Positions 1,548 through 16,350 of a stretch of 20,970 nt of DNA are shown here, one piece after another. The position numbers were made by a program, and so were the translations under genes. The notes under the pieces are model-generated. The model saw only the letters and a list, made by a program, of their open reading frames with translations. It searched no databases and was not told the DNA's origin. Position 1 is the first letter of the stretch, and every line of letters begins with the position of its first letter. Source of the stretch: Candidatus Methylomirabilota bacterium (GTDB lineage Bacteria > Methylomirabilota > Methylomirabilia > Rokubacteriales > CSP1-6); NCBI GenBank assembly GCA_046726415.1, contig JBKPAK010000077.1:1-20970 (forward strand). The letters run 5' to 3'.

Positions 1548-2592
1548 TCACGCGGCGCTCGCGCGCACGAGGAGTCGCCGGTATACCGCCTCATAGTTGA
1601 GGGCCATCCGCTCGACCGTGAACCACTCCTCGGCGTGGCGGCGGCATGCGGCACGGCTGATCGTGTCCACGCACTCGACCGCGGCCGCGAGCTCGTCCAG
1701 CGTGTCGCCGATCAGCCCCGTCCGCCCCGGGACGATCACCTCGGGGACCGATCCGCACGCGCGAGCGATCACGGGCGTCCCGCACGCCATGGCCTCGATC
1801 ATCGCGAGGCCGAAGGGCTCGGGCCAGTCGATCGGGAAGAGCAGCGCCCGCGCGCCGCCGAGAAAGCTCGGCGTCTCGTCCTGGCCGATCTCGCCGATGA
1901 ACTCGATCAGCGGGTGATCGAGAAGTGGCGCGATCTCGCGGTCGAAGTAGTCGCGGTCGACGGCATCCACCTTGGCGGCGATCTTGAGCGGCAACCCGGC
2001 CCGCCGGGCGATCGCGATGGCGAGGTCCGGTCGCTTCTCGGGGGAGATGCGGCCGAGGAACGCGAGATAGGGCCCGCCGGCGTGCGAGTACGGATACTCC
2101 TCGAGCGGCAGCCCGTGGTGGATGGTGGCGGTCCAGCGAACGCCGAGCCCGTCGAGCGGCCGGCGCTGGGCGTCGCTGATCGACACCATCGGAATGCCGT
2201 GGAAGTGCCGGAACAGCGGCGGCAAGCTCGGCAGGTCCAGCCGGCCGTGCAGCGTATGCACCGTCGGTGTTCGCACGAGCCGCGTATAGGGGAACGCAAG
2301 GTAATCGACGTGACAGTGGATCGCGGCGAAGTCCGCCGCGTTGCTCGAAGACCCGGGCCAGCGCGAGGACGTGCGCCGCGATGGGATCGCGCGGCTCGGG
2401 GTCGAGCCGGAGCGCCCGCGGCGTCACCGCGACCAGCTCGGCGTGCGTGCACGAGTCACCGCTCGCGAAGAGCGTGACCGCATGCCCGCGCCGCGCCAGC
2501 TCGTCGCAGAGGTACGCGACGACGCGCTCGGTGCCGCCGTAGCGACGGGGCGGGACCCGCTCGTACAGAGGCGAGACCTGAGCGATCCGCAT
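1548..2592 (-). pseudogene. Glycosyltransferase family 4 (GT-B), one frameshift near 2338-2342
   Basis: MRIAQVSPLYERVPPRRYGGTERVV...GHAVTLFASGDS, then a frame change to DFAAIHCHVDY...HTLHGRLD...FLGRISPEK...FPIDWPEPFGLAMIEAMACGTPVIA (EX7E motif). It stops 7 nt before the glucosidase ATG. Confidence 0.9.
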
Positions 2593-2704
2593 GAGCCGTG
2601 ACTCCAGCGTGGTGCCGGGGGGGCCGCAGCGCGGCCTTTGATCTCGTAGTAACACGGAGATCGCGCGCGTCAAGGCGACGCGCGGTAGACTCAGCCTCGT
2701 GACC

Positions 2705-3228
2705 GTCGCCGGCACCGACCGCGCCATCGCCGTCGACGCCATTCCCGAGCGGGTCTCGAGCTGGCGCGCGCCTTCGGCGCCGATGATGCCCTGAACCTGG
2801 CCGATCTCACGACACCCGGGGCGCGGGTTTCAGGCGGTGATGGACCTGACAGGAGGCTTCGGCGCGAACGTGGTGGCCGACTTCGTGGGGTACCCGGCGG
2901 TCATTCCGGAGGGCCTGCGGATGCTCCGCGCGCCGGCGGCTGCTACCTCGAGGTAGGCAGCACCGCGCCCGGCAACATCTTCTCCTACGATGCGACTGCC
3001 ATGGTGGGGGGCGCGGTGCGATTCGTGGCGTGCGCGAACTACTCGCCGGGGGCGCTCGCCCAGGCCCTGACCTTCCTGCGCCGGAACCTCACGCGCTTCC
3101 CGTTCCAGCGATTGGTCTCTCACGTCTTCCCGCTGGAGCGCATCAGCGAGGGCTTCCGCCATGCCGATTGGATGAATCGCCAGGGTGGCACCGCCCACGT
3201 CTCCCGCGCCGCGGTCGGGATGGGCTGA
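2705..3228 (+). pseudogene. C-terminal remnant of a zinc-binding (MDR) alcohol dehydrogenase, about 3 frameshifts, N-terminus missing
   Basis: The stitched translation is AIAVDAIPER/LELARAFGADDALN/QAVMDLTGGFGANVVADFVGYPAVIPEGLRMLR/GGCYLEVG...LVSHVFPLERISEGF, with breaks near 2753, 2830 and 2930. Confidence 0.8.
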
Positions 3229-3308
3229 GCGACTGTCTCATGACGTTCCGCCTCATTGGCTCTTGTCATCCGGTGAAGACCCCCATCCGGTCGCTGGCCG
3301 GACGGTTC

Positions 3309-4241
3309 CTACTTACCAGCGAGGCGGGCGACGACGGGCGCGAACGCGTTCACGTATGGCTCGAAGACGACGTAGTAGGAGATGTCCCAGCGCTCGCGGC
3401 GCCTCGTGAGATCTTCGACGAGCTCGTCCACGGTCCCGATAAGCACGTAGGGGCTCTGGAGGATTTCGTCGATGCTCAGCTGCTTCCACCGGCCCGCCAG
3501 CTCCTCGGCCGCCCGGCGGCGATCGTCCGTCACGATCACCCGTTGCACAAGCGCATTCAGCTCGAGACCGGCGTAGCGGACGCTGGCGGCCTCGCGCACA
3601 AGCTGGAAACGCTCGTCGACGGCCGCCATCCGCCACCCGGAGAGATCCGGCTCTTTTCCGCCACGCCGGAACGTGATCCCCGACAGGCCCACAATATCGG
3701 CTTCCTTCGCGGCAAGGGTCAGGAGCTGTTGGCCGTTGCCACCGATGAGGATGGGCGGATGCGGTCGCTGGACAGGGAGTGGATAGATCGTGTGGTTCGT
3801 CACTCGATAGTGCTGCCCGGTGAAGGTGACCGGCTGACCTTCGAGTAGCCCCTTGATGATGGCCACCGCCTCCGCGAGCCGCTCGACCCTGGTACCTCCG
3901 TGATCGAAGGAGAGCCCCGCCTCGTCATACTCGGACTTCATGTGCCCGGCGCCCACGCCGAGCTGAAGCCGACCGTCGGTCAGAAGATCCACCGTCGCCG
4001 CCTCGCGCGCGACCAGCACGGGGTGGCGGAAGTCATTGTTCAACACGTTTGTGCCGACCTGGAGGCGCTTCGTCGCCGCGGCGGCGGCGACGAGCGCAGG
4101 CATAGGGGCGAAGATGTCAGCGAGGTGATCGGGCACGGTCAGCGCGGAGTAGCCGAGATCCTCGAGCGTGCGGGCCTTGTCTGCCCACTCGGCCCGCGAG
4201 GGCGCGCTCCAAACGTTGACGCTGAACCGGAACGGCTTCAT
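3309..4241 (-). CDS. LLM-class (luciferase-like) oxidoreductase, probably F420-dependent
   Basis: Intact 310 aa with PDHL, VGTNVLNNDFRHPVLVAREAATVDLLTDGRLQLGVGAG, PVQRPHPPILIGG and SPYVLIGTVDE. Confidence 0.9.
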   Translation of the reverse strand: MKPFRFSVNVWSAPSRAEWADKARTLEDLGYSALTVPDHLADIFAPMPALVAAAAATKRLQVGTNVLNNDFRHPVLVAREAATVDLLTDGRLQLGVGAGHMKSEYDEAGLSFDHGGTRVERLAEAVAIIKGLLEGQPVTFTGQHYRVTNHTIYPLPVQRPHPPILIGGNGQQLLTLAAKEADIVGLSGITFRRGGKEPDLSGWRMAAVDERFQLVREAASVRYAGLELNALVQRVIVTDDRRRAAEELAGRWKQLSIDEILQSPYVLIGTVDELVEDLTRRRERWDISYYVVFEPYVNAFAPVVARLAGK

Positions 4242-7929: not shown

Positions 7930-10740
<2,811 letters not shown>

Positions 10741-10999
10741 CTCGTGTGTGCTTCCTCCGAGAACCATCCCGCGGTGCAGCCGCGCTGACGGTCAAAGAGC
10801 CGAACGCCCACCCCGCACGGCGCAGGGAGGTCGCGATGATCGCCCATGGACCCCCCGAAGATCGAGAACGCGCCACCGTGCTCGCCCTGCGCCATCTCTG
10901 GGGCATTCTGCTCACCGGCGGAGACGATGAGTCGGGCCGACGGCAATGCCCCACCAGCGGGGGGCCCACTCCTCCTGCCTCGGCAGGATAGGCCCATTC

Positions 11000-11387
11000 G
11001 TGTCTGACTCGACTAGGGAGCACTGCGCCCAATACGGTAGCGTATGCTGACGGGGAGAACCACAAGCTAGTAGTGGAGTTCGCCATCCCAGGAGCGCCAA
11101 CGGATACCATCGATGTGAAGATCCTGGAAGACAGCATCCACCTGACAGCGCCAGCAAGGGATATCGAGTATGTTTCAGCACTGGCTTTAGCTTGGCAGGT
11201 GAAACCTAACAAAGCCGAAGCGACCCACGAGCACGGCCTGCTCCGAATCGAAGTGCCCTTCAAAGATCCGATGGAAGATGCTGTGAAGGTCGCCATCAAA
11301 GCACGTGGCGCGGAAACCAAAACCTGCGGGGCCTTTCCCAACGCTACCAGGTGTCCTTGCGGCAAGCCCGGCGATATGTCGACGTAG
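11000..11387 (+). pseudogene. Hsp20/alpha-crystallin small heat shock protein, frameshift near 11016, C-terminus possibly replaced
   Basis: GTG at 11000 gives VSDSTR, then a frame change to TAPNTVAYADGENHKLVVEFAIPGAPTDTIDVKI...AEATHEHGLLRIEVP (sHSP A..xxGLL.I.VP motif). GC is visibly lower than in the flanks. Confidence 0.75.
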
Positions 11388-11428
11388 CTCAGCACCATCC
11401 GTAGGGGGTGCCGGTCCCGGAGCCGACC

Positions 11429-11575
11429 GTGGTGTTCACCGTCAAGCTGCCCGTCGGGCTGGTGCGGCGCGTCCGGACCCACGCCCGCTCGACTGGCAGC
11501 AGCTTGAGCGCTCTCGTGGCACGGGCGCTCGAGAACTGGCTGGAGCGGGTCCGGCCAGGCCCCCGGGGTGGGTGA
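11429..11575 (+). CDS. Ribbon-helix-helix (CopG-like) DNA-binding protein, 48 aa (55 aa if it starts at GTG 11408); not in the ORF track
   Basis: MVFTVKLPVGLVRRVRTHARSTGSSLSALVARALENWLER shows an alternating beta strand ending in LP, a helix, then GSSLSALV..AL. GGAG lies 6 nt before the GTG, and the stop overlaps the next start (GTGGGTGA). Confidence 0.75.
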   Translation: MVFTVKLPVGLVRRVRTHARSTGSSLSALVARALENWLERVRPGPRGG

Positions 11576-11834
11576 GCGGCGCATCGAGCACAGCTATGTG
11601 TTTGATCGTCTGGGGAGCGAGCGCCTCACCCAGGCCTATAGGATTCTGATTCCTCACCGTCGCCGCAGTCTGAAGCCCAGGGCCGCGGTCGGCGCGGAAG
11701 GAGGCCCGTCACATGAAGACGGCGGCGATCTACGCGCGCGTCTCCTCGGACCGGCAGAAGGAGGAGCAGACGATCGCCAGCCAGACCAGCGCGCTGCGCG
11801 CCTACGCCGCCGCGCACGAGTATCTGGTCCCTGA
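11568..11834 (+). CDS. Small hypothetical protein overlapping the 5' end of the LSR by 122 nt
   Basis: The N-terminal half (RRIEHSYVFDRLGSERLTQAYRILIP) looks protein-like and is coupled to the RHH stop. The C-terminal half is an alternate frame of the LSR. Confidence 0.55.
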   Translation: MGERRIEHSYVFDRLGSERLTQAYRILIPHRRRSLKPRAAVGAEGGPSHEDGGDLRARLLGPAEGGADDRQPDQRAARLRRRARVSGP

Positions 11835-13392
11835 GGGCCACGTCTTCGAAGACGAGGGCTGGAGCGGGGCGACCCTCGTTCGGCCCGGCCTCGAGCGCCT
11901 CCGGGACCTGGCGGCCCAAGGGCAGATGGAAGTGGTGCTCGTCTACAGTCCCGACCGGCTCAGTCGCAAATATGCGTATCAGGTGCTGGTGCTGGAAGAG
12001 TTCGCCCGCCATGGGGTGGAGGTGGTGTTCCTCCGGAGCCCCCGGGCCGAAACCCCTGAGGACGTCCTGCTGCTCCAGTTCCAGGGCATGATCGCGGAGT
12101 ACGAGAAAGCCCAGATCAGCGAGCGCACGCGGCGGGGCAAGCGGCATCGCGCCCAAGCCGGCTTCGTCAACGCCCTCACGGGGGCGCCGTTCGGCTATCG
12201 CTACGTGCGCAAGGCCGAGGGTGCGCCCGCGCGGTATGAGGTGCTCGAGTCCGAGGCCCTCGTGGTGCGCGAGGTGTTCCGCCGGTACACCGAAGAAGGG
12301 AACTCGCTGGGCGCCCTCGCCCGCTGGCTGACCATGGCGGGGATCCGTACCCGCACCGGTCAGTCGCGATGGAATAAGAGCTCGGTCTGGGCCATGTTGC
12401 GCAATCCAGCGTATCGGGGCACGGCCTGTTTCCAGAAAACCCGGCAGGCTGAGCGGGAGCGCGTGAATCGCCGCCTGCGGCAGCGCGGCGGCATCCCCGC
12501 CCACCCGGTGTGCTCACGCCCTCGCCCGCGCGAAGAGTGGATCGAGATCCCGGTGCCTGCCCTGGTGTCCCCCACTCAGTTCGCCCTGGCCCAAGAACGC
12601 TTCGAACAGAACCGGCAGTTTTCAGCCCGGCACACCAAGCAGCCCTCGCTCCTCCAGGGCCTGCTGATCTGTCAGCTGTGCGGGTACGCGCTCTACCGGT
12701 ACTCGACCCGCACGACGTGCCGTCGACTCACCTATTATCGCTGTACGGGGACCGACGCCTATCGCTTCCCGGACGGCCGCCGCTGTACCAATCGCCCCGT
12801 CCGGCAAGACGCGGTGGAGGCGCTCGTCTGGGAGCACGTCATCCAGTTGCTCAGCAATCCCGCGCTCGTGCGCGCCGAACTTGATCGCCGGCTCATGGAG
12901 CTGCGCACCGACCATGTCGGGGACGTGCAGCGTGATGTCGCGACGAAGGAGCTGGCTCGCATTCGCGCCGGCGTCACCCGCTTGATCGAAGCCTACCAGG
13001 AGCAGCTGATCTCGCTCGATGAGCTCCGCATGCGGATGCCGCCTCTCCGCCAACGAGAAACGACCGTCCAGACCCAGCTCGCGACCCTGGAGGCGGAACT
13101 TCTCGACGCCGAGACGTATGTCGCCCTCGCCGAGAGCCTAGAAGGCTTTCTCGCCAAGCTCCATGATGCGGCCCAGACCCTCGAAGTTGCCGATCGCCAA
13201 CGCGTCCTCCGGCTGGTGGTCAAAGAGGTCCGGGTCGGGCCTGACTCCATCGTCATCAAGCACTCGATTCCGTTCCCTGGCCATCATCCGACCCCGGGTT
13301 ATCTATTGCGTCCAGGGGATCGTGATCAAGAAAATCGGCATCGTGATCACCGGGATCGGAGGATCGTGATCAGGGCGATGGCCGAAGCGTAG
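11713..13392 (+). CDS. Large serine recombinase (resolvase + recombinase + zinc ribbon + coiled coil)
   Basis: AAIYARVSS (catalytic Ser), DEGWSG, RPGLERL, PDRLSR, LRNPAYRG and LLQGLLICQLCG...YYRC...RC; AAGGAGG RBS. The last ~24 codons are read from the IS21 end. Confidence 0.95.
   Translation: MKTAAIYARVSSDRQKEEQTIASQTSALRAYAAAHEYLVPEGHVFEDEGWSGATLVRPGLERLRDLAAQGQMEVVLVYSPDRLSRKYAYQVLVLEEFARHGVEVVFLRSPRAETPEDVLLLQFQGMIAEYEKAQISERTRRGKRHRAQAGFVNALTGAPFGYRYVRKAEGAPARYEVLESEALVVREVFRRYTEEGNSLGALARWLTMAGIRTRTGQSRWNKSSVWAMLRNPAYRGTACFQKTRQAERERVNRRLRQRGGIPAHPVCSRPRPREEWIEIPVPALVSPTQFALAQERFEQNRQFSARHTKQPSLLQGLLICQLCGYALYRYSTRTTCRRLTYYRCTGTDAYRFPDGRRCTNRPVRQDAVEALVWEHVIQLLSNPALVRAELDRRLMELRTDHVGDVQRDVATKELARIRAGVTRLIEAYQEQLISLDELRMRMPPLRQRETTVQTQLATLEAELLDAETYVALAESLEGFLAKLHDAAQTLEVADRQRVLRLVVKEVRVGPDSIVIKHSIPFPGHHPTPGYLLRPGDRDQENRHRDHRDRRIVIRAMAEA
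13319..13372 (+). repeat. Three direct repeats ATCGTGATCA, IS21-family left-end transposase-binding repeats
   Basis: Copies at 13319-13328, 13340-13349 and 13363-13372 (21 and 23 nt spacing), 70 nt upstream of istA. Confidence 0.8.
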
Positions 13393-13441
13393 CGACGCTG
13401 GACCGTCGGCCGGGGCCGTCCGCCCCCCGAAAGGGGGAGGG

Positions 13442-14195
13442 ATGGCCACCGAGCGATTGTCCATGCGCCAGACACGGGAGATCCTGCGACAGAAGTGGAG
13501 CCTCGGGCGCACCCACCGGGAGGTGGCGCAGAGCCTGGGGATCAGCAGTGGTGCCGTCGGGACTCACGGTGCTGCGGGCCCGCGCGGCCGGGCTCGATTG
13601 GGTCTAGGTCGACACCCTCAGCGACGACGCGCTGCAGGCCCGCGTGTACGGGCCCCCGACCCCGCCCACGCATCATCGCGCCGTCCCCGACTTCGCCTCC
13701 CTGCATACCGAGCGGCGCAAGCCCGGGGTCACGCTCGAGCTGCTCCATCTCGAATATCTCGAGCAGCATCCGGACGGCTACCGCTACACCCAGTTCTGCG
13801 AGTTCTACCGCCGCTGGCTCCAGCGCCGGGGCCTCTCGATGCGCCAGGTTCACCGCGCCGGCGAGAAGTGCTTCGTCGACTACGCCGGCCAGAAGCCGAG
13901 GATCATCGACCCGGCCACCGGCGAGGTGATCGCGGTCGAACTCTTCGTCGCCGTGCTGGGGGCCTCGAACTACACCTACGCGGAAGCGACGCGCACCCAG
14001 CAGGTCCCGGATTGGATCGCGAGCCACCAACGCGCCTTCCAGTTCTTGGGGGGCGTCATCGAGGTCATCGTGCCCGATCAACTCAAGAGCGGCGTCGTCG
14101 TGCCGTGCCGCTACGAGCCCGGCGTGCAGCGGACCTACGACGATTTCGCCCAGCACTACGGCACCGTGATCCTGCCGGCGCGGCCGGCGAAACCA
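13442..14195 (+). pseudogene. istA: IS21-family IstA transposase: frameshift near 13565, in-frame TAG at 13605, truncated
   Basis: MATERLSMRQTREILR...GVTLELLHLEY...YRYTQFCEFY...MRQVHRAGEKCFVDYAG...LFVAVLGASNYTYAEAT...IVPDQLKSGV...FAQHYGTVILPARPAKP, after which similarity stops. Confidence 0.92.
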
Positions 14196-14366
14196 CTGGT
14201 GCCGCTCGTGATAGGGGCCATCTGGTCGCTCGTGGATCTGCTCCGCTCGCGATCCATCGTCGAGGAGATCAACAACCAGAAGGCCGCCGAGATCGCCCGC
14301 CAGATGGGCATCCGCGCCAAAATCCCGGTGGCGAAACTCTGCCGCCGCGGCGGCGCCGGACTGTGA
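14196..14366 (+). pseudogene. Unrelated C-terminal gene fragment fused in frame to istA, possibly TM2-domain-like
   Basis: LVPLVIGAIWSLVDLLRSRSIVEEINNQKAAEIA: a hydrophobic helix with a W.LVD motif followed by an amphipathic helix. Confidence 0.35.
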
Positions 14367-14367
14367 A

Positions 14368-14398
14368 GCGGCCCGGGTCACGACTCGACCCGGGCCGC
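14368..14398. terminator. Hairpin between convergent genes, downstream of groEL
   Basis: GCGGCCCGGGTC-ACGACTC-GACCCGGGCCGC, a perfect 12-bp stem with only a weak U-tract. Confidence 0.65.
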
Positions 14399-14426
14399 AG
14401 GGAAGACCCCCACCGAGGGTTACCGG

Positions 14427-16350
<1,924 letters not shown>

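Follow-up and report, generated by a model that had tools for sequence, protein, structure and literature searches.

The window, that is, the whole stretch of DNA analysed here (20,970 nucleotides), is the whole of contig C77 in a genome assembly of 352 contigs that is 98% complete. Between positions 11323 and 13392 it carries three chained genes, the last of which encodes a large serine recombinase (LSR); all features described below lie on the plus strand unless stated otherwise. The LSR open reading frame (ORF; 11713–13392) specifies 559 amino acids and matches, in this order, Pfam PF00239 Resolvase (E = 3e-35), PF07508 Recombinase (E = 4.5e-20) and PF13408 Zn_ribbon_recom (E = 4.3e-12). 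It begins directly with the catalytic strand, its N terminus reading MKTAAIYARVSSDRQ, which we take to be the catalytic-serine motif, and it has its own ribosome-binding site; for these reasons a fusion of the preceding gene to the LSR by frameshifting was dropped as an explanation of their overlap.

Ahead of the LSR lies gene 2, a small ORF of 88 amino acids (11568–11834) with a conserved core of about 30 residues (..FDRL...LAQAY..LVP..), which overlaps the LSR start by 122 nucleotides and the gene before it by 8. Gene 1 is present in two pieces. Its ribbon-helix-helix (RHH) half is a 55-amino-acid ORF that starts from GTG (11408–11575; Pfam RHH_1, E = 1.6e-5), and it is preceded by an N-terminal, helix-turn-helix (HTH)-like remnant (11323–11403) that starts at about codon 32 and runs into an in-frame TAG at 11401–11403. 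An earlier note, made from the sequence alone, had described an RHH gene, a small ORF and an intact LSR chained by overlaps. The ORFs, overlaps and domains were found as described, except that what had been taken for the RHH gene represents the 3′ portion of a gene that specifies 115 amino acids. As that note had also stated, no phage, conjugation or cargo genes are among the genes of the element.

LSR-type sequence terminates at ...GYLLRPG, within a terminal inverted repeat (13299–13321) that encodes ..YLLRPG(D) and agrees with the right repeat of related elements. The ORF is native only up to 13321 and continues for 71 nucleotides beyond it. Because the homology of relatives ends at 13285–13328 and related copies of the flanking IS21-family element align only from 13315–13318 on, the terminal codons of the LSR, 23 plus the stop, are read from crossover and IS21 DNA; the earlier note had put this borrowed tail at about 24 codons. 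We conclude, with a probability of roughly 0.85, that positions 11323–13321 are a 5′-truncated, immobilised copy of an approximately 2.2-kb, cargo-free mobile element that is moved by its LSR.

A family of 2.2-kb elements with an open-ended recombinase gene

We collected relatives from one genome per species; at least 522 LSR relatives were found among at least 603 pattern matches, and the best 80 were used. An independent scan of metagenomes provided a further 80 loci as a replicate. The family was found in many phyla, and many genomes carry multiple copies. Seven pairs of copies from the same or near genomes share only 2,222–2,262 bp, at 98.7–100% identity and with sharp edges; their similarity ends about 590–610 bp upstream of the LSR start and just beyond the last conserved LSR residues. 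Because copies in the same genome share only about 2.2 kb, the family is the size of an insertion sequence (IS), so that the IS-sized LSR element proposed by the earlier note holds for the family. That note had also proposed a search for further copies: copies within the genomes of relatives define the shared ends, and the genome of the window holds only a relic on another contig, C101. One pair, L078 and L081, is an exception and shares 5.2 kb, the extra upstream part having internal repeats offset by about 1.77 kb.

The termini of the family are inverted repeats of about 23 bp, and pairs of these repeats lie 2,172–2,305 bp apart at 67 of the 80 genome loci and 56 of the 80 metagenome loci. 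Every element with placeable ORFs has the same gene order, an HTH+RHH gene, a small ORF and the LSR, in 56 distinct versions; the window has the same order and overlaps, with a 5′-truncated gene 1. No cargo was found inside the family elements, and no phage genes in the window or inside the repeats of the relatives. Gene 1 has 109–115 amino acids in the family. The AlphaFold model of the gene 1 product of L100, a close relative of the window copy, has a mean pLDDT of 89.7, with three helices at the N terminus and, after them, a helix pair of the RHH type. Its best fold matches are RHH repressors (the PutA DNA-binding domain, CopG, Arc and omega; TM about 0.7–0.86 by target length, E of at least 0.4); the search returned nothing at E 0.001 or better, and its matches were small RHH domains only. 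Gene 1 is predicted to encode an HTH+RHH DNA-binding protein. Gene 2 has no family in Pfam or NCBIfam, and the predicted model of its product (mean pLDDT 60.6, one helix) is too poor for a fold search; in an alignment of 30 sequences, the residues D, R, L and Y are invariant. In another close relative, L005, the LSR is split at 1646–3375 into overlapping ORFs (1646–1999 and 1924–3375), which points to a frameshift or to an error in sequencing.

In all 65 elements in which the LSR frame was followed, no stop codon interrupts it before the end of the element, and it is likewise open through the right repeat of the window copy. In the integrated state the LSR stops wherever the flank supplies a stop codon. 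When the right end was joined to the left end in silico, a stop was reached after 25 residues in one clade and 30–32 in most others, with L072 and L083 as outliers. Among 60 distinct left ends the stop had index 24 in 11, index 30 in 18, index 31 in 26 and another index in 3, and it was absent in 2. Because the frame never closes inside the element and closes on end joining, the full-length LSR is encoded by the circle only. The circle-only tail has a conserved N-F-x-F/W-x-R motif and a basic end, and it varies at third codon positions, which is the pattern of translated sequence: diversity at the three codon positions beyond the repeat was 0.217, 0.179 and 0.457 in one set (n = 26) and 0.369, 0.330 and 0.581 in another (n = 18). 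Thus the earlier proposal, which placed the right junction within the recombinase gene at its 3′ end and gave the integrated and circular states different tails, is borne out at the level of the family. The tail in the window does not contain the N-F-x-F/W-x-R motif, and the left end that would supply it is missing.

The two boundaries of the window copy

At the right side, the terminal repeat is complete to its tip and ends at 13321, and comparison with the left ends of L100 and L005 shows complementarity at 18 of 30 bases. The crossover is likely to be the dinucleotide GT at 13322–13323, a few bases to the right of GGGG at 13315–13318, as judged from its register with L005, which has GT on both sides, and L100, which has AC on both sides. 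The DNA that follows (13324–14194) is a decayed IS21-family element, of which the inner part of the left repeat array and an interrupted istA remain. The 10-mer ATCGTGATCA occurs in three exact copies, at 13319, 13340 and 13363, about 22 bp apart, a count that was reached in no shuffle. Positions 13921–14194 are 91.6% identical over 274 bp to the istA gene next to L100, whose neighbouring ORF is IstB_IS21 (E = 8.8e-73); the rve domain in the window has an E value of 1.2e-7, just under the Pfam cut-off.

Two IS21 copies in related genomes, L097 and L098, align with the window only from 13315–13318 and extend 40–60 bp farther out, and contigs from two soil runs, X2 and X3, carry the same outer IS21 sequence just ahead of 13318. 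(Four soil runs, X1–X4, were used as assembled contigs; uncovered parts in X2–X4 carry no meaning.) The IS21 element in the window has lost its outermost 37 bp or so, the 3′ part of istA, istB and its right end. These comparisons indicate that the LSR element lies inside the terminal repeat array of an IS21-family element, at the second repeat. As a side observation, the istA gene of the window (13442–14366) is broken, the HTH frame from 13442 differing from the catalytic frame at 13644–14366, and its similarity to the intact istA next to L100 ends at 14194.

On the left side, DNA similarity to the relatives L005, L100, L163, L139 and L004 begins at 11323–11360, with that to L005 starting at 11323 itself. 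Their LSRs are 80% (L100), 75% (L005), 74% (L004), 73% (L139) and 71% (L163) identical to that of the window in amino-acid sequence. Gene 1 is intact, at 115 amino acids, in L005, L004 and L100, and the window keeps it from about codon 32 on. The intact elements L100 (2,213 bp) and L005 (2,183 bp) both reach about 206 bp farther to the left; the window copy lacks this part, which holds the left repeat and codons 1–31 of gene 1. None of the five relatives has sequence in common with the window to the left of 11323, yet each has about 206 bp more of the element there. No left-repeat-like sequence was found within 9000–12000 of the window, and the left end of L100 has no match anywhere in the assembly. 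These results indicate that the left boundary at about 11323 is a deletion breakpoint inside gene 1 rather than an attachment site, and the absence of the left repeat is read here as loss by deletion. The breakpoint is spanned by contigs of two studies (X1, 11274–11581; X2, 11291–11581), which rules out an artefact of this one assembly, although X1 may be its source sample; one X1 contig also covers 12850–14565.

Target sites and the branch in IS21 ends

Sixty-one genome elements had at least 45 bp of flank. In 58 of these, at least one flank carried a reverse transcriptase (RT) motif, with PQG.. on one side and SP..AN on the other; 40 carried it on both flanks in consistent orientation, 20 of them in the sense and 20 in the antisense direction. 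The motif was present in 47 of 48 elements of the metagenome replicate. One of the three elements that did not match, L065, has a variant of the motif when examined by eye. ORFs in the right flank start at position 125–126 of the RVT_1 profile in all five cases tested, and a group II maturase domain was found in four. For most members of the family the insertion site, used in either orientation, is the stretch of a group II intron reverse transcriptase gene that encodes the PQGG-x-x-SP motif.

The two bases that border each repeat on its outer side are taken as the crossover. They are equal on both sides in 24 of the 61 genome elements and 34 of the 48 metagenome elements; AT is the commonest matching pair, and AG, GT, GC, AC, CT, CA and AA pairs occur too. 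TC as a fixed crossover, offset from the centre of the palindrome, was also considered and was dropped, as several junctions misfit.

The right flank of the window is an IS21 terminal repeat and not an RT motif. The window copy, L100 and L005 have changed repeat tips, and their sites have the form GATC-RY-GATC (GATC-GT/AC-GATC); two of the three lie in IS21 ends. L100 is an intact element at the right end of the same type of IS21, where it occupies the last repeat and has AC on both sides, and L005 lies in a response-regulator gene where the DNA spells GATC-GT-GATC, with GT on both sides. Six slightly more distant relatives (L139, L163, L184, L200, L204 and L205; 70–74% identity to the window) keep the usual repeat tips and lie in RT motifs, and the branch of the window therefore appears to have switched both its repeat tips and its target. 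Its three members make this a lead and not a rule. A scan with the left-end pattern gave 26 matches, of which six were accompanied by an LSR, two of those being L004 and L005; about 17 matches were estimated to occur by chance. The changed tips and target core of this branch would amount to a natural experiment on how attP/attB specificity shifts. As for the window copy, it is a relic whose value is that it exposed the branch that targets IS21.

Origin of the window copy and its alternatives

The anatomy of the locus suggests the following history. The element would first have inserted at the left end of an IS21-family element, in the second repeat of the array to which the transposase binds. 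A later deletion would then have taken the outer IS21 end, the left repeat of the element, the start of gene 1 (31 codons) and the final codons of the adjoining hsp20-like gene, and the IS21 element would have lost its right half. Because the LSR now ends in a foreign tail and its left partner site is gone, normal excision of this copy is impossible. For intact members of the family, we infer excision in circular form, with the two repeats together making a near-palindromic attP; the circle would then encode the full-length enzyme, by which it would be integrated at another site.

Several observations weigh against this reading. The junction dinucleotides differ between the two sides in 37 of the 61 genome elements and 14 of the 48 metagenome elements, a difference not expected of a canonical serine-integrase crossover; a mismatch might be tolerated and then resolved by segregation. 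Copies that are at least 99% identical, such as L037, L039 and L040, also have unlike junction dinucleotides (CT/TT, AT/TT and AT/AC), and strict matching of crossover bases would not allow this. Some elements have chimeric flanks: two N-terminal RT halves point inward at L004, L018, L068 and L069, and two C-terminal halves were found elsewhere, L038 and L077 being among such cases. At L018 the two flanks are exact reverse complements. Chimeric flanks could come from recombination between copies in different introns, from inversion at a palindromic crossover or from assembly error.

Further points count on the same side. The group with the 25-residue tail has no excess of third-position diversity (0.227, 0.189 and 0.230; n = 11). 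The IS21-targeting branch has three members, one of which, L005, lies outside IS21 and has a frameshifted LSR; a scan for more members with the right-end pattern found only L005 in genome contigs and none in viral contigs. The assembled soil contigs, which cannot show rare circles, contained no circle, no empty site and no product of excision, and the X1 contigs may not be independent support if that run is the source of the genome. The roles of gene 1, gene 2 and the tail are putative.

The earlier note had taken the locus for a complete element of 1,987 bp, bounded by GGGG at 11328–11331 (attL) and 13315–13318 (attR), whose circle would encode an LSR ending with the peptide read from 11332 on. 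The arithmetic is correct, as is the in-frame tail when the two ends are joined as sequences; the frame is open across the join, and the proposed right boundary is nearly that found here. The left end, however, is a deletion breakpoint without a left repeat. The boundary proposed there cuts gene 1 at codon 32 and is followed by a TAG, no inverted-repeat partner lies within 9000–12000 or elsewhere in the assembly, and five relatives carry about 206 bp more of the element to the left of 11323. The shared GGGG is itself no mark of a junction, since it is no commoner than expected by chance (245 occurrences on the two strands of the window, against a mean of 325 in 100 shuffles, every one of which had more), and the predicted tail is the hsp20 frame running on, without the tail motif of the family. 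We regard this model as barely credible. Truncation of the LSR gene by an IS21 that transposed into its 3′ end would also put IS21-type sequence directly after LSR-type sequence, as is seen. A transposing IS21 brings its whole end, though, and here the outermost 37 bp or so are gone; because L097, L098 and the X2 and X3 contigs carry outer end sequence without a counterpart in the window, IS21 did not transpose into the LSR tail. IS21 copies that begin with LSR-tail sequence, which the earlier note had held would point to such an insertion, were not found; the copies align from 13315–13318 only. With the right repeat of the LSR element complete to its tip, and with the same kind of element lying cleanly in the other end of the same type of IS21 at L100, between matching dinucleotides, this explanation is very unlikely.

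The three genes could also have served as integration module in a larger element, either a phage or an integrative element, most of which has been lost here, and the gene upstream of L005 does encode a tail-fibre-like protein with a Peptidase_S74 domain. That gene is separated from gene 1 by the left repeat of L005 and a fragment of the response-regulator gene, copies in the same genome share 2.2 kb and nothing more, and RT or IS21 halves directly abut both repeats, all of which makes a larger element extremely improbable. An immobile copy whose open LSR gene has been retained because it serves the host, or works in trans at sites elsewhere, would explain why the 559-residue ORF is uninterrupted despite the decayed left end and the surrounding IS21 sequence, but a recent deletion would leave an open ORF too. 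The assembly has no partner sites, second copy or invertible segment, its only other trace of such a gene being the relic of about 220 bp on C101, and none of 25 related genomes has an orthologue at the same place. We consider this possibility unlikely, and favour the truncated copy of a 2.2-kb element.

If the element moves in this way, two of its features can be combined in a more tentative proposal, which we think possible but hold to be doubtful: an LSR gene split across attP would serve as a built-in sensor of state, and the window branch would be a case of natural re-targeting. The integrated copy would make an enzyme with a random tail, sufficient for excision, and only the circle would make the full-length enzyme with the conserved basic tail, which would drive integration. 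The direction of recombination would then be set by the topology of the element, instead of or besides a separate directionality factor. In the branch, altered tips of the inverted repeats would have led the LSR to give up the intron RT motif for the repeats at which the IS21 transposase binds. If this is true, the re-targeted branch shows which few bases set the choice of target, and control of direction by the tail would be a new and very compact form of regulation for serine integrases, which are widely used tools in genome engineering.

The clostridial transposons Tn4451/Tn4453 and Tn5397 are moved by LSRs (TnpX and TndX); they are at least 6 kb long, carry cargo and have a GA crossover, and the joint of the Tn4451 circle makes a promoter for tnpX. 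As in these transposons, the LSR here acts as a transposase rather than as a phage integrase, with many target sites per genome, and movement would be through an excised circle. The present family, by contrast, is far smaller, at 2.2 kb, and has no cargo; its joint completes a coding sequence and not a promoter, and its crossover appears to be GT in the window, AC in L100 and mostly AT in the family, with GA at 2 of 61 left junctions. Integrase or repressor genes that span attP are known, for example, from the integrase of SSV1-type archaeal viruses and from integration-dependent immunity in mycobacteriophages, which are viral systems based on tyrosine recombinases. As in the SSV1-type integrase and the mycobacteriophage immunity system, integration alters the C terminus of a protein encoded by the element, so that the integrated and free proteins differ; here, unlike in those systems, the protein is an LSR in a cargo-free element of 2.2 kb. 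The flanking DNA resembles the IS21 family in its end array of motifs about 21–23 bp apart, in an istA with an rve domain and, in the copy at L100, in IstB, but IS21 is the target here and not the element, and the IS21 copy in the window is truncated at both ends.

A search of full texts, which returned mainly listings and abstracts, brought up no account of an element of this kind, nor of an LSR gene spanning attP or of RT motifs or IS21 ends as targets of LSRs, although the supplements of a study of LSRs by Durrant et al. 2022 (PMC10083194) could list such enzymes. In the available part of that study, multi-targeting LSRs resemble those described here in that close LSRs are found at many genomic places with a common motif; the motifs given there are AT-rich or other motifs with a TT core, and the words ‘reverse transcriptase’ do not occur in its main text. 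The same part states that most LSRs of the TndX-like clade carry DUF4368, for which the window LSR has no match at E 0.01 or better. IS607, as far as the available text of PMC6188088 describes it, is similarly an IS-sized element moved by a serine recombinase, but its enzyme is a small serine recombinase and its elements have no terminal inverted repeats; the NCBIfam IS607 model NF033518 scores 43.2 bits with the window LSR against a cut-off of 110, in the catalytic domain only. LSR transposons are a known class, and what was undescribed in the literature found is an IS-sized, cargo-free kind whose recombinase gene is complete only in the circle, which lives inside other mobile elements (RT genes of introns and, in the window, an IS21 end) and which is present in many phyla.

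The gene to the left of the element (10992–11322) matches the NCBIfam archaeal Hsp20 model NF041800 (E = 3.2e-10) over profile positions 81–161 of 162, and its own last codons were lost at the breakpoint. X1 contigs of greater depth share this hsp20-like gene up to 11318/11319 and then have a different 3′ end and stop. The stretch from 10968 to 11369 has a GC content of 53–58%, compared with 65–73% around it, and its summed contig depth in the soil runs is about ten times that of its neighbours; it may be common to many organisms or itself be mobile. Because the hsp20-like stretch (10741–11322) has no match in 25 related genomes, no empty site can be reconstructed. The native hsp20-like 3′ end, seen at the loose contig ends at 11318/11319, and the IS21 end to the right of the LSR junction have an 11-base word in common (window 11316–11336 and 13326–13336); we estimate a chance of about 1 in 1,000 for stretches of this size. 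Beyond the IS21 sequence, groEL and groES lie on the other strand. The relic on C101 (13108–13324; L002/L003) is what is left, over about 220 bp, of a second LSR gene in the same assembly, and it is 83–85% identical to positions 12583–12733 and 12909–12971 of the window, the intervening part having been deleted.

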